Shown in pieces: positions 1,236-38,855 of a stretch of DNA of 64,000 nt (the first letter of the stretch is position 1; every line of letters begins with the position of its first letter). The notes beneath the pieces were generated by a model. The model was given only the letters and a program-made list of their open reading frames with translations, did not search any database and was not told where the DNA came from. The DNA is taken from the NCBI GenBank assembly GCA_964571255.1, contig CAZNAA010000001.1:136134-200133 (forward strand). Direction: 5' to 3'. The translations under genes were made by a program, and so were the position numbers. This DNA comes from an uncultured Gammaproteobacteria bacterium (GTDB lineage Bacteria > Patescibacteriota > Microgenomatia > Levybacterales > UBA12049).

Positions 1236-1323
1236 TGGCGGAGGGGGGGGGATTCGAACCCCCGGATTCTTGCGAATCGATTGTTTAGTAAACAATTGCA
1301 CTCGACCACTATGCGACCCCTCC
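1236..1323 (-). tRNA. Type-II (long variable arm) tRNA, Ser-like with discriminator G73 and encoded CCA. The apparent anticodon is ACU.
   Basis: Hand-folded cloverleaf: acceptor GGAGGGG/CCCCTCC, D-arm with GG, anticodon stem ATTGT/ACAAT with loop TTACTAA, 16-nt variable arm GATTC/GAATC, T-arm GGGGG-TTCGAAT-CCCCC, then G-CCA. Confidence 0.7.
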
Positions 1324-4594: not shown

Positions 4595-4972
4595 GGTAGA
4601 GAGTAGTTGATCTAACTCCTTAAAATCTTCATTTAACTGTTCTGCCTCAACAATCACAGGTACTGAGGTTGAACTGACCTCATTGGCAGTTGCTACCGTT
4701 TGGGCACTAGCTCCTGCTGTTGGAGTGACATTAGTTTGCAGAGTAACTGGAGTAGTACTAGTTGGCTTCATTTGTGTTGAGAGATAATACCATGCTCCTC
4801 CTCCTGTGAGGCTTAGAACAAGCATAGTGACAAAGAAAATCCCAAAGATAGTTCCAAGATGACTTTTTGGTTCCGGAGGAAAGATAGGGGCTTGTTGTTC
4901 AACTGGAGCTTCAGTTACTGGTGTAGCTGGTTGTAGTTGTTCTGTTGGTGTTTGTTGTGTGTTTGGATCCAT
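4589..4972 (-). CDS. Hypothetical Thr/Pro-rich single-TM protein
   Basis: Low-complexity N-terminus with one TM (IFGIFFVTMLVLSL). Only weakly supported. Confidence 0.35.
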   Translation of the reverse strand: MDPNTQQTPTEQLQPATPVTEAPVEQQAPIFPPEPKSHLGTIFGIFFVTMLVLSLTGGGAWYYLSTQMKPTSTTPVTLQTNVTPTAGASAQTVATANEVSSTSVPVIVEAEQLNEDFKELDQLLSTL

Positions 4973-5775: not shown

Positions 5776-6200
5776 GTATAGGGGAGTATAATAGGAGTAT
5801 GTCTGATGCTAAAAACAAACCTCAGGATTATTGGAAAGAAAAATTAGATGAAGAGCAATTTCGAGTTCTCAGATGTAGTGCAACCGAGGCTCCGTTTAGT
5901 GGGAAATATTGGAATAATCACGAGACAGGAATGTATCAATGTGCTGCATGTGGACAAGAATTATTTTCATCAGATGCAAAGTTTGAATCCGGAACAGGCT
6001 GGCCAAGTTTTGATGATACCGTGAACAAATCCCACATTGAACTAAAAGAAGACGATGCGTATGGTATGAATAGAACTGAAGTGGTATGTAGTAACTGTGG
6101 ATCTCACCTAGGTCATTTATTTACTGATGGTCCAGCTCATACCACAGGACTTCGCTATTGTATTAATTCTGCCTCATTGGACTTTAAAAAGAAAGAATAA
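5769..6200 (+). CDS. msrB: Peptide-methionine (R)-S-oxide reductase MsrB
   Basis: Two CxxC zinc motifs (CAACGQ...CSNCG), the GWPSF motif, and the catalytic RYCINS Cys. An alternative start is at 5799. Confidence 0.85.
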   Translation: MSSIGEYNRSMSDAKNKPQDYWKEKLDEEQFRVLRCSATEAPFSGKYWNNHETGMYQCAACGQELFSSDAKFESGTGWPSFDDTVNKSHIELKEDDAYGMNRTEVVCSNCGSHLGHLFTDGPAHTTGLRYCINSASLDFKKKE

Positions 6201-32616: not shown

Positions 32617-33942
32617 ATGGCAAGAGTTCTCCCACATAATGATGAAGCAGAGCAAAGTGTGCTAGGTGCAATCATGATTGATAAGGAAGCAATCACGGTT
32701 GTTTCTGGAATTTTGCGTCCTGAGCATTTTTATAACGATACGAATCTTCTTATTTATGATGTTATGCTCACACTTTTTGACGAGAGAAAGCCCATTGACG
32801 TTTTAACTATTTCTTCTCAACTCAAAAAACACAGAGGAGGAGATAAAATCCCCAGTGCATACATTACTGATCTAGTTAGTGCTGTCCCAACAGCCTCAAA
32901 TGTAGAATATTATGCCCAAATTGTCAAAGACGTTGCCCTCAAACGTTCACTTATCAGAATTAGTGGGGAAATTACGGATATGTCTTTTGAGGAAGATAAT
33001 GAAACTAAAGACATCCTGGATAAAGCAGAGTCCTCAATTTTTGCTGTGGCTCAAGGAAATATTATTCGGGATTTTGTTCTCCTTAGAGAAACCCTTTCTG
33101 ATACTTTTGACAGAATTGATGAGTTGCATCAAAAAGGAGATGGGCTACGAGGGGTTCGAACAGGATTTAAAGATTTAGATAATACGCTATCAGGAATGCA
33201 AAAGGCAAACCTTCTCATCCTTGCAGCGCGTCCTGGAACGGGTAAAACAGCCATTGTGTTGAATATGGCCCAATACGCTGCTCAACACGAGAAAAAGCCT
33301 GTGGCTATCTTTTCTCTTGAAATGAGTAAAGAAGAACTCGTAGATCGTTTGGTCGTTTCTCAATCAGAAGTAGATGCATGGAAAATAAAAACAGGAAGAC
33401 TGAATGAGGAAGATTGGGATAAAGTCTCCTCTGCCATGGGACAGCTTGGAGATATTCCCCTGTATATTGATGACACCCCAGGCATTACGATGGCTGAGAT
33501 GAGAAGTAAAGCCAGAAGACTTCATTTAGAACATGGACTCGGTCTTATCGTAGTAGATTACTTGCAACTGGTTAATCCTGGAAAGCAATATGAAAGTCGA
33601 ACTGTTGAAGTCTCCGCAATCTCGCAAGGCTTAAAAAATCTTGCCCGTGAGTTAAATGTTCCGGTTTTAGCTTGTTCTCAACTTTCTCGTGCAGTGGAGC
33701 AACGAGGAGAGAAGAGACCACAGCTGGCTGATTTGAGAGAATCCGGAGCCATTGAACAGGATGCAGACGTTGTTATGTTTATCTATAGACCAGATTCTGA
33801 AGTAACTGGAAATACTATTCCCACGAAGCTGCTTATCTCAAAACATAGAAATGGTGCAACAGGAGAGATTGATCTTCTCTTTAGAGGAGACAGAATGAAA
33901 TTCTTTAATATTGAAAAAGGAATTGAGGAAGAAGTACACTAA
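32617..33942 (+). CDS. dnaB: Replicative DNA helicase DnaB
   Basis: N-terminus EAEQSVLGAIM, Walker A GTGKTA, Walker B, and RecA-like C-terminal domain. No intein. Confidence 0.9.
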   Translation: MARVLPHNDEAEQSVLGAIMIDKEAITVVSGILRPEHFYNDTNLLIYDVMLTLFDERKPIDVLTISSQLKKHRGGDKIPSAYITDLVSAVPTASNVEYYAQIVKDVALKRSLIRISGEITDMSFEEDNETKDILDKAESSIFAVAQGNIIRDFVLLRETLSDTFDRIDELHQKGDGLRGVRTGFKDLDNTLSGMQKANLLILAARPGTGKTAIVLNMAQYAAQHEKKPVAIFSLEMSKEELVDRLVVSQSEVDAWKIKTGRLNEEDWDKVSSAMGQLGDIPLYIDDTPGITMAEMRSKARRLHLEHGLGLIVVDYLQLVNPGKQYESRTVEVSAISQGLKNLARELNVPVLACSQLSRAVEQRGEKRPQLADLRESGAIEQDADVVMFIYRPDSEVTGNTIPTKLLISKHRNGATGEIDLLFRGDRMKFFNIEKGIEEEVH

Positions 33943-33946
33943 GAAT

Positions 33947-34504
33947 ATGCAACCCTATCTTATTGGTGCTCTTCTTGGAACAATTTCCTCAGGAAGTTTT
34001 ATTGCTATCTCTCTTTTTTTCCCAGAAGTAAACTTTGAAGGCTTTGTTCCAGGAATTACTTTTGGAGCTGTATTTGCTCTCTATACTCTTTTTACCAATA
34101 AAACTACGCTTTTTAAAGCACTTCTGTTTGTCATTGCTTCAACTGCCTCCTATTATGTTGCCTATTCTGCCTTTATTATTGCTGCAAGTTTTTCACAATA
34201 TACTGCATGGACGTACCCTCCCCCTGATCCTAATTATTTTTTCTACTATGTAGGTGGGATTGTTGCAGGAGGAATAGGTGGATTTCTTCTTTCTCTAAGT
34301 AGTCACTGGTTGCTAATTAAAAAAGATTCAGATAAATGGATTCGCCTTATTTGCTTGAGTATCCTTCTTGCTTTATATTTATCAGGAATTACCCATTGGA
34401 TTGATAAAACAGATAATGACTTTGACTATTTATATTTGAGTTTCTTCTTTGTCTGGCAAGTAGGAATAGGAAGTTTATTAGCACGTTACCTAGAGAAAAA
34501 ATAG
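33947..34504 (+). CDS. Hypothetical polytopic membrane protein
   Basis: Several TM helices. The start was taken at the Met just after the dnaB stop. Confidence 0.4.
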   Translation: MQPYLIGALLGTISSGSFIAISLFFPEVNFEGFVPGITFGAVFALYTLFTNKTTLFKALLFVIASTASYYVAYSAFIIAASFSQYTAWTYPPPDPNYFFYYVGGIVAGGIGGFLLSLSSHWLLIKKDSDKWIRLICLSILLALYLSGITHWIDKTDNDFDYLYLSFFFVWQVGIGSLLARYLEKK

Positions 34505-34509
34505 AGAAA

Positions 34510-35115
34510 TTAGGATTTCTTAGCAGATAATTCTTTGTATACTTTTGCCTTTGCAATTTCGACTACTGGTACAGCTACTAAAACTCCAACAAAGAAAGCG
34601 ATAAGTCCTAGAATAACTACTCCCATTCTAGCTAGTGCAAACAAAAATAGGTCAAAGGTGTGTCCACGAGTTAATTCCCAACTTGCTTTGAGAGAATCAA
34701 TGGCACTCATGTTTTTTTCAATGATGTAGTACTTAAACATACTAAGTCTGATTCCAACGATAATTCCTGGAATAACGAGTGCGAGAAAAGAAATGGCTAC
34801 GGCAAGTGAATTTAGTACTGTTCCTAAAAGAAGAGGAAGATAGTGTTTGTGTTCTGTCCAGAGAAGAGAAGCTTGAATAGGTTTATTCTCAACAATATTT
34901 AAAACCATTCGAGTAACTCCTGCAGTGAGAAGAATTCCAACTAAGAAAGAAAGAAGCATGAAGAGAGTGTTTGGATCTCCATTTTCTCCTTGTCCAATGT
35001 TTTGAATCAGAGTAGGGATAGCAATACTTGCAACAGTAATTCCAACAATTAGCCAGAACTGTTTCTTTGTTTGTTCCCAGCCGTATACAATGGATTCTTT
35101 AATTCGTACGTTCAT
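34510..35115 (-). CDS. Integral membrane protein (DUF975-like)
   Basis: Four to five TM helices. The start was taken at MNVRIKESIVYGW. The longer ORF extension runs into the high-GC segment. Confidence 0.4.
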   Translation of the reverse strand: MNVRIKESIVYGWEQTKKQFWLIVGITVASIAIPTLIQNIGQGENGDPNTLFMLLSFLVGILLTAGVTRMVLNIVENKPIQASLLWTEHKHYLPLLLGTVLNSLAVAISFLALVIPGIIVGIRLSMFKYYIIEKNMSAIDSLKASWELTRGHTFDLFLFALARMGVVILGLIAFFVGVLVAVPVVEIAKAKVYKELSAKKS

Positions 35116-35179
35116 AGTGTAAGTGTAAGAAGGATGGATAAAATAGTCAAGAAGGAATTTGAGATATACGTGATATTGG

Positions 35180-35915
35180 GTTTGAGCAGGCCTGAACATT
35201 GCTGTCAGACCTGCTCGAGATGGTAAGTGAGAGTGGGGCTCACTTTCCATCAGGAATGAACTTACTTGGTTAGATAGTTGCGATACGAACCTTCAACGCT
35301 GAAACCTAATCGCTTGGCGACACCATAGGCTGTCCAGAAGCGTTTCTTCGCCTCTAACACGGCCATCCGGATTTCAGCCATTTTCTCACGCCGTGTCATG
35401 ACTTTCCTGGCGCTGACTTCGTTGTCAAACGCCGTTTGCATTGCCCGCGCTTTCATGGCCAGATAAGAATTGACTCGGAGCTGGTCGTTTTGGCGATCAC
35501 TTGTTGGTTTCCAACCGTACTGCTCGAGGAAGATTCCCAGATCTCGCTGCCTCTTCAGCCACCGCCATCCTCGGAAGGGGAGACAGACAGCCTCGAGAAA
35601 GACGAGCAGAGGGAATCCCACGCTCCGTTCCCACCAGAGAATAGCGGTTTCCAGCCTGAAAAAGCTGAAAAACCAGAAACTCCCGAGGGCGAGTGTAACG
35701 TAGGCAGCGATGCTCACAATGTAAAGGTTCATTCCGATTCTCCTGCGGGTTCTTCCCGCCAATTGCCAGTTCTGCTGGCTTCGGATTGTTCTCACGGAGC
35801 TTCCGTGAGCGAGTGCGATCCGCGCACTCTTCCTTGAGAGGTCCCACTCCCTCAAAAAGTAGGTAAAGTGTAGCAAAAAGAGGATGAAAAGTCAAGTACT
35901 ATAGGTTTACTAATT
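35180..35915. other. Compositionally foreign high-GC segment (about 50-55% GC versus about 36% in flanks) abutting the 3' end of tRNA-Leu
   Basis: Visible GC shift. Multiple overlapping six-frame ORFs are typical of GC-rich DNA. A perfect 8-bp hairpin CTCACGGA-AGC-TCCGTGAG lies at about 35795-35813. Confidence 0.6.
35262..35732 (-). CDS. Hypothetical protein with an N-terminal TM helix, encoded in the high-GC segment
   Basis: This is the longest frame in the segment. The likely start is MNLYIVSIAAYVTLALGSFWFF. The in-frame upstream extension reaches 35876. Confidence 0.3.
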   Translation of the reverse strand: MNLYIVSIAAYVTLALGSFWFFSFFRLETAILWWERSVGFPLLVFLEAVCLPFRGWRWLKRQRDLGIFLEQYGWKPTSDRQNDQLRVNSYLAMKARAMQTAFDNEVSARKVMTRREKMAEIRMAVLEAKKRFWTAYGVAKRLGFSVEGSYRNYLTK

Positions 35916-35923
35916 GGTATTAG

Positions 35924-36006
35924 TACCGGGGGAGGGACTCGAACCCTCAAGGCCTTGCGACCAGTAGTTTTTGAGACTACCGCGTATACCATTCCGCCAC
36001 CTCGGC
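35924..36006 (-). tRNA. tRNA-Leu (anticodon CAA), type II, CCA not encoded
   Basis: Acceptor GCCGAGG, D-loop with GG, anticodon stem GUAGU/ACUAC with loop CUCAAAA, variable arm GGUC-GCAA-GGCC, T-arm GAGGG-UUCGAGU-CCCUC, discriminator A73. The acceptor 3' strand CCCCGGU leaves an A5-C68 mismatch. Confidence 0.8.
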
Positions 36007-36061
36007 ATTTGAATTGTCATTATTGTCAATTCGTGCTTCCTATTATATACTTCTCAGTATG

Positions 36062-37027
36062 ACGATACAAGAAATTTATGAATTAGGACTTGAAATGGCA
36101 ATTGATGCTGATCCTCGGGGAAAGTCCGAAGTAGCACGAGTTTTAAAAAGAGCCAAGAAAAAATACGATGAACTGTCAGCTAAAAAGAAAGCTGTATTTG
36201 ATACAGAAGATTTGAACAACCCCTATACTGACTCTCGAATTCTCGCTGGAGACCCAAAACAAAAAGTTACAAAAATTATGAGTGGTATTGATCTGAATGC
36301 ATCGGAAGTACTTCTTGCAGACAGATTAAATCAAAAAGGAGAGGGAATTGACCTTCTGATTGCTCATCATCCTGAAGGACATGCGTTAATGAGCTTGTAT
36401 GAGGTGATGGATGTGCAAATTGATATGGCAGAACGCGTTGGAGTTCCTGTTACTATGGCACATGGCTTAATGGAGGACAGAAAAGGAATTGTGAGACGAA
36501 GATTTTCTCCTCTCAATACCAATCAAGCAGTTGATGCAGCACGTCTTTTAGAACTTCCTCTTATGACCATGCACACCTTCTGGGACAATATGGGAAATAA
36601 GTTTGTTGAGGATTATTTGAAAAAACAGCAATTTGATACAGCAGGAGAAGTACTGGAAGCAATTAATGACATTCCTGAATTTGCTGGGGCAATTAAGCTA
36701 AAAAATCCTCCAATGCTTGTTTCAGGGAATGAAAACAGACGAGTAGGAAAGATTGCCGTTGCTTTTACTGGAGGAACAAATGGATCAAAAGAGTCATACA
36801 TTGAACTTGCCAAAGCAGGAGTTGGAACTATTGTTGAAATGCATGTAGCAGAAGATGCCTTAGTCGAGCTGAGAAAACTAAATGTGAATGTGATTGATTG
36901 TGGACATATGGCTGCTGATTCTATTGGAGCTAATCTCTTTTTTGATGCGGTTGAGAAAAAAGGAGTAGAGGTTTTGGCCTGTTCTGGGTTAATTCGAGTA
37001 AAACGGGGAGGAAAGAAAAATAAATGA
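36062..37027 (+). CDS. Nif3-family (YqfO/GTP cyclohydrolase-1 type 2 homologue) protein
   Basis: GIDLLIAHHPEGH metal-binding motif and conserved C-terminal His/Glu region. The start was taken after the tRNA. The TGA stop overlaps the efp ATG (ATGA). Confidence 0.5.
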   Translation, partial: TIQEIYELGLEMAIDADPRGKSEVARVLKRAKKKYDELSAKKKAVFDTEDLNNPYTDSRILAGDPKQKVTKIMSGIDLNASEVLLADRLNQKGEGIDLLIAHHPEGHALMSLYEVMDVQIDMAERVGVPVTMAHGLMEDRKGIVRRRFSPLNTNQAVDAARLLELPLMTMHTFWDNMGNKFVEDYLKKQQFDTAGEVLEAINDIPEFAGAIKLKNPPMLVSGNENRRVGKIAVAFTGGTNGSKESYIELAKAGVGTIVEMHVAEDALVELRKLNVNVIDCGHMAADSIGANLFFDAVEKKGVEVLACSGLIRVKRGGKKNK

Positions 37028-37581
37028 TTTCCGTAACTGAGCTTCGAGCAGGAGTAACGTATCAGGAAGATGGAGTTCTTCTTCAAGTAATTTCTTACGA
37101 ACACGTAAAAACGGGGAGGGGAAGTGCAAATATTAAAGTAAAGGTAAAAAACCTTTCTAATGGCTCAACTGTTGAAAAGGGATACATCAACGGAGCACGG
37201 GTTCAAGACGTGATGGTTGTTAAAAAAGACGTGCAATTTCTTTATAAAGATGAAACGAGTGCGTATTTCATGGATCCTTCAACGTATGAACAAATTAGCA
37301 TGAGCCTCTCTAAAATCCCAGAACACCTGTATCTAAAAGAAGGGGAGACATTTAATATTAGTTTTTTAGATTCTACGCCACTTTCTCTTCTTCTCCCTCC
37401 GAAAATGGTATTTACTGTAGTGGAAACTCCCGTTGGAGTAAAAGGGAACTCAGCTACCAATGTCTTTAAAGATGCAGAGCTTGATAACGGGATGCATGTA
37501 AAAGTTCCTCTTTTTGTTGACGCAGGGGATAAGATCCGCGTTGATACTCGTACAGGTGAGTATAGTGAGAAGGCATCTTAG
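37024..37581 (+). CDS. efp: Elongation factor P
   Basis: KOW-like N-domain ELRAGVTY...VKTGRGSA and three OB domains, 185 aa. Confidence 0.9.
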   Translation: MISVTELRAGVTYQEDGVLLQVISYEHVKTGRGSANIKVKVKNLSNGSTVEKGYINGARVQDVMVVKKDVQFLYKDETSAYFMDPSTYEQISMSLSKIPEHLYLKEGETFNISFLDSTPLSLLLPPKMVFTVVETPVGVKGNSATNVFKDAELDNGMHVKVPLFVDAGDKIRVDTRTGEYSEKAS

Positions 37582-37586
37582 CTTGT

Positions 37587-38855
37587 ATGAATACCAATTT
37601 TTTTCAAGCGTTTAAGTCCAAACCATTTCTTAATCTGTGGCTTGGGGAAGTCTTTACTCAAATTGCAGTTAATCTTTTTAACTTCTACCTTATCGTTTTT
37701 GTTTTTAACCTTACCCAATCTAGTACAGCAGTATCAGCAATTGTTGTTTCTTTTACCGTTCCAGCTATTCTTTTTGGAATTCTCGCCGGGGCGTATGTAG
37801 ATAGGTGGGATAAGAAGAAGGTGCTTCTTTTCACCAATATATCAAGGGCTCTTATTATTTTTATTTTGGCTTTTTTCCATATGAATATTTGGATGCTTTT
37901 TCTCGCGTCTTTTCTCGTCTCACTCATTACCCAATTTTTTATTCCAGCAGAATCTCCCATGATTCCTCAACTTGTTCGAAAAGATCATTTGCTCTCTGCT
38001 AATGCACTTTTTGGATTGGGAATTTTTGGATCCGTTCTTTTTGCCTACGTCATCTCAGGTCCATTACTTTTGCAATTTAAAGCTATGGGAAGCCTGCTTA
38101 TCTTAGCTGGACTTTTAGTGGTAGGAGCTATCTGTATTTCCTTTATTAAGGAGAAGTATAGTGACGAAGAACACGATGTTCGTCATACACACCAACTCAC
38201 CTTTCACAACGAAGTACGTCATGCGTTTAATATTATTGCGCGTACCAAGGCTATTTATGAATCATTAGTTATTCTGGCCATGACGCAAGTGTTAACTCTT
38301 GTTATTGCTACTCTTATTCCAGGGTATGCAGAAAAAGTTTTGGGGATGGCAGTTGAAGAGTTTTCTTTTCTCTTTATCACCCCAGCTGCACTCGGAACAG
38401 TGATTGGTGCTGTTGTGATTGTAAATATGCTTTCTCGGTTTATGAAGGAAAAACTCGTTACCTTTGGTATTTTTCTTTTCGGAGTTAGTATGCTCATTTT
38501 GCCCTATGGATCACGAATTGCATCTCGAGACATTGTTTCAACGCTTAATTCTTTTCTTCCGCCCTATATGGATATTACCAATTTACATATCTTAGTTTTC
38601 TTGGCATTTTTCATGGGACTTGCTAATGCTTTAGTCTTTGTTCCGTCAAATACGCTACTGCAAGAGAGAACGAGTGATGAAGTGAGAGGCAAAGCCTATG
38701 GAGTACTGAATACCTTGGTAGGTATTTTATCGTTTGGACCAATTCTTCTAGCAGGTGGACTGGCTGACCAATTTGGCGTTGCAGCTGTTATTATAGGAAT
38801 AGGAGTAACTGTGCTTCTTTCAGGACTCTATCGAGTTGTGATGGGACATAATTAA
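37587..38855 (+). CDS. MFS transporter
   Basis: 12 TM helices, and the motif GAYVDRWDKKKV between TM2 and TM3. Confidence 0.75.
   Translation: MNTNFFQAFKSKPFLNLWLGEVFTQIAVNLFNFYLIVFVFNLTQSSTAVSAIVVSFTVPAILFGILAGAYVDRWDKKKVLLFTNISRALIIFILAFFHMNIWMLFLASFLVSLITQFFIPAESPMIPQLVRKDHLLSANALFGLGIFGSVLFAYVISGPLLLQFKAMGSLLILAGLLVVGAICISFIKEKYSDEEHDVRHTHQLTFHNEVRHAFNIIARTKAIYESLVILAMTQVLTLVIATLIPGYAEKVLGMAVEEFSFLFITPAALGTVIGAVVIVNMLSRFMKEKLVTFGIFLFGVSMLILPYGSRIASRDIVSTLNSFLPPYMDITNLHILVFLAFFMGLANALVFVPSNTLLQERTSDEVRGKAYGVLNTLVGILSFGPILLAGGLADQFGVAAVIIGIGVTVLLSGLYRVVMGHN

Follow-up and report, generated by a model that had tools for sequence, protein, structure and literature searches.

A GC-rich single-gene unit beside tRNA-Leu(CAA) in a Candidatus Levybacteria genome is probably an intact accessory cassette with a structured leader RNA

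The DNA considered here is a stretch of 64,000 nucleotides (the window) of contig CAZNAA010000001.1, from a Candidatus Levybacteria genome of the Candidate Phyla Radiation (CPR), and has an overall guanine-plus-cytosine (GC) content of 37.8%. Around the site of interest, DnaB is followed by a variable stretch and then by tRNA-Leu(CAA), NIF3, and EF-P. The variable stretch holds a GC-rich segment next to the tRNA, with the host gene for a DUF975 membrane protein on its far side. The segment reaches 50%–55.5% GC in 200-nt windows between 35200 and 35900 (50%–56% over 35190–35850) when compared with 31%–39% in both flanks, so the compositional contrast that first drew attention to it is genuine. 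The original prediction took the segment for the decayed or minimal remnant of an island that had entered at the 3' end of the tRNA and lost its integrase. An integrase or recombinase is indeed missing within approximately 9 kb, as the open reading frames (ORFs) from 26.4 to 40.3 kb belong to housekeeping families only in Pfam scans. However, the segment itself is probably an intact accessory gene cassette of approximately 760 bp (~35160–35905), and not the stump of an integrase-bearing island.

The inserted unit extends from approximately 17 nt past the tRNA to about 35160, and it would comprise, in order, a sigma-70-type promoter with a CCTATAG box, a five-hairpin leader, a membrane-protein gene, and two 3' hairpins, H1 and H2. 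The claim that the segment abuts the tRNA therefore holds for the unit, but the GC-rich DNA proper begins only at a distance of about 72 nt from the tRNA, and the AT-rich gap is the cassette's own promoter. This promoter A (35867–35905, on the minus strand, like every feature below unless stated otherwise) consists of the CCTATAG box at 35899–35905, a -35 element TTGACT at 35890–35895, a 17-nt spacer, and a -10 element TACACT at 35867–35872. The structured 5' leader (35733–35866) is approximately 134 nt long, about 115 nt of which lie in the consecutive hairpins P1 (35831–35858, loop AGUGGGAC at 35841–35848), P2 (35811–35829, with a CGGAU loop), P3 (35791–35809), P4 (35765–35779), and P5 (35745–35759). 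Directly after P5 comes the Shine-Dalgarno sequence AGGAGA (35739–35744) of ORF156 (35262–35732), which starts with ATG and encodes 156 amino acids. A plausible ORF had been predicted, and the real gene is this form; the 204-amino-acid TTG form was rejected, as its start falls inside the promoter. H1 (35219–35251) starts 11 nt past the stop codon and carries the loop CCCCACU (35232–35238), which is complementary to the P1 loop. In H2 (35184–35216), the stem is 12 bp long, one of its pairs being G-U, and the loop is CAGCAAUGU; no U-tract comes after it. Where one hairpin had been anticipated, several are thus present. An AT-rich tail and the right insert junction (35151–35183) close the unit, and the last ~10 nt of this tail (AATTCCTTC) are orthologous to DNA at the empty site of the related locus L054.

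In the window, the minimum free energy of the leader is -54.1 kcal/mol (z = -4.1), and a leader of this kind precedes all eight family genes for which the upstream region could be compared, in unrelated contexts, with the hairpin series ending each time at the Shine-Dalgarno sequence. When six leaders were aligned with MAFFT, RNAalifold recovered P2 to P5 from the raw alignment, with 15 of 25 pairs compensatory. A covariance model, R1, was built from these six training leaders, including that of the window, with P1 added, and was used to re-align them. In the R1-fitted alignment, 90.6% of cells are paired, versus 33%–46% when the partners are slid by one to three columns; 19 of 31 pairs have changed on both sides, and none of 500 shuffles reached any of these measures. 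This alignment is model-fitted and contains six sequences, whereas the RNAalifold result on the raw alignment and the matches at untrained loci are independent of the fitting. More specifically, R1 matches two untrained loci upstream of family genes, L071 with 103 bits and L072 with 54 bits; the window leader, which belongs to the training set, scores 121 bits. The plan common to the family is a P1 with an (A/U)GUGGG loop, three to four hairpins with AAGNN-type loops, a Shine-Dalgarno sequence, and a gene of the ORF156 family. Rfam 15 at E ≤ 1 returned only tRNA and chance-level matches for window positions 34000–37000 and for L052, L053, L069, and L070. Judged on covariation and recurrence, the leader appears to be a new and well-supported RNA family that is not in Rfam.

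Searches for further copies of the leader were largely empty. R1 found none elsewhere in the window or in 46 syntenic Levybacteria loci. A gapped P1/P3 pattern had 67 matches in IMG/VR, approximately the chance expectation, and R1 applied to these 67 loci gave only two partial matches of 24 bits, one (L074) in a phage coding sequence and one (L081) with the same score and span. The P2 19-mer was not found in IMG/VR, and its ten matches in JGI metagenomes were rejected as chance, all of them lying in DNA of 52%–68% GC with the adjacent P3 sequence missing.

Promoter A also recurs with the family. The CCTATAG box abuts the -35 element in five of the seven loci that retain a promoter region (the window, L051, L053, L070, and L071) and not in L052 or L069; in L072 this region is cut off at the 5' end. 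The palindromic box, C(C/T)TATAG in its general form, lies at 35899–35905 in the window, at 5833–5839 in L051, at 645–651 in L070, at 2317–2323 in L071, and at 822–828 in L053, and a role as operator or UP-like element is possible. Promoter A and the DUF975 promoter (promoter B) are the only two TTGAC-N17-19-TAYRCT sites in the 64 kb. A consensus scan of the plus strand from 35180 to 35900 gave no promoter-like site, which is weak evidence of absence.

The two ends of the predicted transcript carry complementary loops. Every member whose 3' end is available presents CCCAC(U/A) in the hairpin that comes first past the stop codon, while the stems of these hairpins are otherwise unrelated in sequence. 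In all seven complete transcripts (690–860 nt), a sequence exactly complementary to the P1 loop is present a single time, always in that first hairpin, and in six of the seven it sits in a predicted hairpin loop; the stem in L071 is weak, with 3 bp recognized by eye. The chance of such a complement is 1%–6% per 3' untranslated region, and duplex energies range from -8.4 to -12.9 kcal/mol. In most members the P1 loop is AGUGGG and the H1 loop CCCACU. L053 has UGUGGG and CCCACA, L069 and L072 share UAGUGGG and CCCACUA, and L071 has AGAGUGGG and CCCACUCU. From this pattern we infer a 5'-3' kissing contact between the P1 and H1 loops. The 3' hairpins of the window are jointly stable beyond expectation (z = -6.5 for H1 and H2 together), and H2 recurs in L053 and L057, its stem having changed in a compensatory manner; in L053 the H2 loop is conserved. 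The possibility that H2 is a dispersed repeat resembling repetitive extragenic palindromic elements was rejected, since it is unique in the window and otherwise occurs only in cassette-bearing loci.

ORF156 belongs to a small, unannotated protein family. Exhaustive HMMER searching of 1.8 billion cluster representatives gave 26 proteins at E ≤ 1e-3, including the query, and only one more member came from a word-indexed search of proteins that used the family alignment. The other 25 proteins are 25%–34% identical to ORF156 (alignment A1), most of them over nearly the full length, and common to the family are a pair of hydrophobic helices at the N-terminus and, toward the C-terminus, the motif K..FW.AH.LA...GF.V..SY.DYL. 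With the family alignment as input, AlphaFold2 returned a predicted local distance difference test (pLDDT) score of 95.4 with all residues helical. The N-terminal two-helix transmembrane hairpin would anchor the protein in the membrane, and the all-helical C-terminal domain is probably cytoplasmic. No match was found in Pfam, PHROG, PADLOC, PDB, or BFVD. The comparison with phage proteins called for in the original prediction gave nothing, as tblastn of ORF156 against phage and plasmid collections had no match.

The codon usage of ORF156 lies approximately 10 standard deviations away from that of the host, and its GC content at third codon positions (GC3) is 63%; for 39 long window ORFs the value is 26.6 ± 3.6% (at most 34%). 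GC3 is likewise higher, by 7 to 38 points, in family genes than in their hosts on each of the five contigs whose neighbouring genes are of sufficient length for comparison. The structured RNA accounts for about 230 of the roughly 670 nt of the GC-rich stretch, so the alternative that an embedded RNA explains the shift holds for part of the excess only. Structure throughout the messenger RNA was likewise rejected as the cause, as the coding parts reach z values of only -2.0 and -3.0. Judged on these comparisons, high GC would be a trait of the family for which structure alone is insufficient as an explanation.

The cassette is an accessory feature of its locus. We compared the window with 46 GTDB loci (L005–L050) that share the DnaB/tRNA-Leu/NIF3/EF-P synteny and are mostly assigned to Levybacteria/Levyibacteriota or Patescibacteria, and a hidden Markov model of the family found no ORF156-family member in any of them. 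In L054, an empty site is preserved: an identical tRNA is followed by 25 nt, a promoter (TTGACA-17-TACACT), and the start of DUF975, whose protein is 65% identical to that of the window. The single L054 promoter is orthologous to promoter B and not to promoter A, and the insert therefore includes promoter A. The idea that the two promoters form a target-site duplication was rejected on the same ground, and because promoter A and its CCTATAG box travel with the cassette elsewhere. Three further relatives (L034, L028, and L026) have tRNA-Leu followed directly by DUF975, so comparison of synteny at this tRNA yields relatives that lack the insert. As such, the proposal of an inserted foreign segment survives in its accessory part, on the empty site, the 46 loci, and the codon usage, and fails in its integrase mechanism. 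The module also occurs in other CPR contexts, beside NusB/RecG in L051 and beside GyrB in L052, both away from tRNAs, as well as in L069 to L072. It appears that the promoter-leader-ORF-H1 module accompanies distant family members at unrelated CPR chromosomal sites and is apparently mobile or exchangeable. In the host lineage, its place is the variable part of the DnaB-to-tRNA interval, where tRNA-Leu(CAA) borders it on one side and the DUF975 promoter on the other.

A close relative carries a different allele at the same site. L053, together with L056, matches the window flanks at 87%–89% identity, with an identical tRNA and a DUF975 protein that is 95% identical, and the L053 cassette has 56% GC and a GC3 of 68%. 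Both L053 and L056 come from another project and show the same cassette architecture. In blastn comparison, however, the homology between the window and L053 breaks off after the first 16 nt of the ORF and is regained only at H2, and the two cassette proteins are only 25% identical. A third allele lies upstream of DUF975 in L057 (DUF975 53% identical), with L053-like H1 and H2. Because the break in homology is sharp and lies inside otherwise collinear DNA, the sequences point to recombinational replacement of alleles and not to gradual divergence. ORF alleles would be swapped with break points in the leader or first codons and between H1 and H2, and such swapping would account for flanks of about 88% identity beside proteins of 25% identity. 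Other GC-rich patches (52%–58% versus 39%–44% for their genomes) occupy the same interval in L016 (3980–4790), L007 (approximately 1000–1600 nt downstream of tRNA-Leu), and L008 (0–400 nt downstream); the patch in L016 holds two small ORFs of 114 and 143 amino acids, unrelated to ORF156.

Several points weigh against the reading of an exchangeable cassette with paired messenger ends. Between the window and L053, divergence in the leader, promoter A, and H2 is of the same degree as in the flanks (87%–89% identity). The cassette would therefore predate the split of these two lineages, which weakens the view that its high GC simply marks a recent arrival. The distribution may fit gain at this site or loss in L054 and L055, the latter also being free of the cassette, and no direct repeats, recombinase, or target duplication was found to account for cassette movement. 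P1 fits R1 poorly, with 69% of cells paired, although by eye its stem forms in each sequence. The case for a kissing contact consists mostly of conservation, with one clean compensatory change and two extensions, and the loops could instead act at the DNA level or bind protein. Any functional label for the ORF156 protein is a guess. Finally, the evidence base comprises 8 leaders and 7 complete transcripts, all of them metagenomic and known as sequence only.

The same divergence pattern could be explained if the unit were an old, vertically inherited gene of the clade with intrinsically high GC, cleanly deleted in L054, L055, and others. The flank-like divergence of the leader, promoter A, and H2 is what such a history would leave, the L057 cassette upstream of a DUF975 gene only 53% identical fits it as well, and the family GC3 exceeds that of the host in several genomes, with the hairpins of the untranslated regions supplying part of the GC. 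On the other hand, the family is missing from all 46 syntenic species representatives and recurs elsewhere in non-homologous contexts, and the homology breaks sharply at the ORF, where a 25%-identical replacement begins. A GC3 of 63%–68% would also be hard to keep against a host value of 27% without fresh input, and structure in the coding parts is modest (z = -2.0 and -3.0). We regard purely vertical descent as unlikely.

The original prediction placed great weight on the tRNA itself. tRNA-Leu(CAA) (35923/35924–36006), identified by ARAGORN and Infernal and without an encoded CCA, is a neighbour of the cassette and not a part of it. Its acceptor stem, GCCGAGG/CCCCGGU, does contain a true A5xC68 mismatch, scored as non-canonical by Infernal, together with a G1-U72 wobble. 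It had been proposed that an integrative element struck the 3' end of this tRNA, that its attP copy created the mismatch, and that the integrase and most other genes were then lost. The position immediately 3' of the tRNA and on the same strand favours this history, as does the hybrid look of the acceptor, whose 5' strand is as in L009, L021, and L043 while its 3' strand resembles that of L028 and L034. In addition, the end of the tRNA, CTCCCCCGGTAC, was noted by eye to bear a weak, degenerate, and gapped resemblance (35170–35185) to CTCAAACCCAATATC of the right junction, and integrase-type scars are present at the same tRNA in L055, L028, and L018. However, the mismatch occurs in five of 41 orthologous tRNA-Leu(CAA) genes (the window, L016, L053, L054, and L055), all with GCCGAGG/CCCCGGT, while each acceptor position in the other 36 is Watson-Crick or G-U. 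The tRNA is 100% identical among the window, the filled site L053, the empty site L054, and the cassette-free L055, and L016 has the same mismatch with unrelated downstream genes and compensatory anticodon-stem changes relative to the window. Downstream of the tRNA in L055, at a distance of approximately 105 nt, its final 17 nt are repeated exactly (AGTCCCTCCCCCGGTAC), and this repeat itself has C68/U72, so the host copy was already mismatched. Since the identical mismatched tRNA stands at the cassette-free L054 and L055, and the mismatch also in L016, sequence comparison identifies A5xC68 as a stable inherited trait of a small clade, independent of the cassette, and the mismatch loses its meaning as an attP-replacement scar.

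The other expected traces of integration are likewise missing. The cassette is not flanked by direct repeats of the attL/attR kind derived from the 3' end of the tRNA: none appeared in a repeat search of 33000–38500, and a search of the whole window for the 16-mer with up to three mismatches gave no copy near 35100–35300. A 20-mer of the tRNA 3' end, used as a possible attP, had one match in IMG/VR, inside a tRNA-Met on an unrelated high-GC contig. With no integrase nearby, a segment that forms an intact and conserved transcription unit, and modules away from tRNAs in L051 and L052, an integrative stump is very improbable, and the description as a decayed or minimal remnant falls with it.

The tRNA-Leu locus shows much rearrangement of its own in related genomes. 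A 17-nt repeat of the tRNA 3' terminus lies approximately 100 nt downstream of tRNA-Leu in L028 (5680–5830, minus strand) as an integrase-type scar, and the direct-repeat scar region in L055 spans 4790–4915. In L018 (5737–5824), a 3' tRNA fragment of approximately 60 nt and of a different acceptor class follows 46 nt after the intact tRNA. The syntenic tRNA-Leu(CAA) genes of L005 to L050 fall into two unrelated acceptor classes, the GGGCRAG and GCCGRGG types, and the orientation of the tRNA relative to NIF3 is reversed in L010, L022, L030, and L041. The two classes and both orientations suggest whole-tRNA replacement or inversion, repeatedly, at this locus. Together with the att-like repeats and the tRNA fragment, they identify it, at the level of sequence comparison, as recombinationally active in the phylum.

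A further alternative holds that the GC-rich stretch is a structured non-coding RNA gene in which the ORF is fortuitous. In AT-rich CPR genomes, a GC-rich island often turns out to be an RNA gene, and the leader and 3' hairpins are real structures. However, the ORF has homologues that are conserved at the protein level, with shared motifs, while their DNA is variable; the Shine-Dalgarno sequence and start codon are conserved, the pLDDT is 95, Rfam gave no match, and the coding part has a z of only -2, so that this explanation is highly improbable. A chimeric assembly, or the fusion of contaminating DNA of high GC to a Levybacteria contig, would explain the abrupt change in composition but is scarcely credible, as four independent Logan assemblies (SRR8893622–25) are 100% identical across both junctions over 1.5–5.4 kb, which establishes that the junctions are not an assembly artefact, and L053 and L056 have the same architecture.

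The neighbouring host genes help to define the edge of the cassette. DUF975 (34510–35115, 201 amino acids) has its true start at 35115, and a 246-amino-acid call that runs into H1 and H2 is an over-extension. Public DUF975 calls of 241–289 amino acids, which reach the cassette 3' hairpins or the tRNA, are also over-extended. Promoter B (35122–35150, TTGACT-17-TACACT) is the ancestral DUF975 promoter, lies in the host flank outside the cassette, and has orthologues in L054, L053, L034, L028, L026, and L055. Its -10 element is only 6 nt from the DUF975 ATG. Across the DUF975 promoters of the window (35113–35150) and these six relatives, the -10 element sits 6–8 nt before the ATG without a Shine-Dalgarno sequence, and this spacing implies that the DUF975 messenger RNA is leaderless. 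A multi-pass membrane ORF of 197 amino acids (33911–34504, plus strand; 35% GC, as in the host) separates DnaB from DUF975, with an overlap at the end of dnaB, and has no Pfam match. It is missing from L053 and L055, where DnaB abuts DUF975, and is thus a second strain-specific gene of the interval. Far from this site, at 1236–1323 (minus strand), a tRNA-Ser call has the anticodon ACU, the anticodon loop UUACUAA, and an encoded CCA; a bacterial tRNA-Ser with an A34 anticodon is unusual, as GCU is expected.

The cassette shares features with several known systems without coinciding with any of them. Islander defines tDNA islands (PMC4383910) by an integrase and by a regenerated target with a displaced fragment. 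The cassette resembles such islands as deviant accessory DNA 3' of a tRNA, at a variable locus whose relatives have duplications of the tRNA end. It differs in having neither integrase nor displaced fragment, and on this basis it is not a tDNA island; moreover, its tRNA is the same at empty and filled sites, and it consists of one gene in 0.76 kb that is also found away from tRNAs. Integron cassettes, including those in clusters of attC sites lacking integrases (CALINs), are similar in being single-ORF units with a 3' hairpin conserved in fold and variable in sequence, and with different alleles at one site. Integron cassettes are normally promoterless, whereas the unit described here brings one along together with a long leader. 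By eye, H1 and H2 lack RYYYAAC/GTTRRRY cores, and the unit has no intI or attI and stands singly, not in an array.

In messenger design, the nearest bacterial parallel is with type I toxins. The messenger RNAs of hok/Sok and aapA/IsoA have a 5'-3' long-distance interaction and a paired Shine-Dalgarno sequence (PMC6733600). As in these systems, a membrane-protein messenger has a structured 5' untranslated region, ends that are predicted to pair, and a conserved fold with variable sequence. Unlike them, the family encodes proteins of 156–206 amino acids and not of under 60, the predicted pairing is a loop-loop contact of 6–8 bp that does not involve the Shine-Dalgarno sequence, and neither an antisense RNA nor an antisense promoter was found, the latter in the weak consensus scan of the plus strand described above. 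Plant RNA viruses use long-distance kissing loops between a 3' translation enhancer and a 5' hairpin in cap-independent translation. The likeness lies in the 5–8 nt of loop complementarity between a 5'-proximal hairpin and one in the 3' untranslated region, with loops conserved and stems varying; these are eukaryotic viral RNAs, however, and the likeness is one of description with no sign of relationship. Finally, Csr/Rsm-type RNAs are multi-hairpin RNAs with GGA motifs in an ANGGA loop. Our leader likewise has tandem short hairpins, a purine motif (GGAAG/GAGAAG) at the stem top and in the loop, and a Shine-Dalgarno sequence after the last hairpin, but the Gs are paired in most leader copies and the loop is AAGNN and not ANGGA.

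If the cassette is an intact accessory unit, as we consider probable, its parts may work together as follows. If the P1 loop (AGUGGG) pairs with the H1 loop (CCCACU), the messenger RNA would be held together at its two ends, 5' to 3', and its stability, its translation, or both might be controlled in this way. Our best guess for the role of ORF156 is a conflict-type function, either toxic or in defence or exclusion, because the gene would be under tight RNA control, with a membrane-anchored product and hypervariable alleles. It is possible, though we put this forward only tentatively, that these elements form an undescribed regulatory design in which a messenger RNA closed by a kissing contact controls a hypervariable, membrane-anchored toxic, defence, or exclusion protein of CPR bacteria, with alleles exchanged among strains by recombination in the conserved RNA elements.

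To our knowledge, very few cis-regulatory RNAs have been found in CPR/Patescibacteria, organisms that cannot be grown alone, and communication of the 5' end with the 3' end in bacterial messenger RNAs is so far known to us mainly from type I toxins. The locus described here indicates that a mismatched acceptor stem beside DNA of deviant GC is insufficient to call an integration scar. What looked like a remnant is probably a defined unit with an unannotated protein family, a covarying leader, and complementary loops at the two ends of its predicted messenger RNA, and the R1 model provides a direct means to gather further examples.

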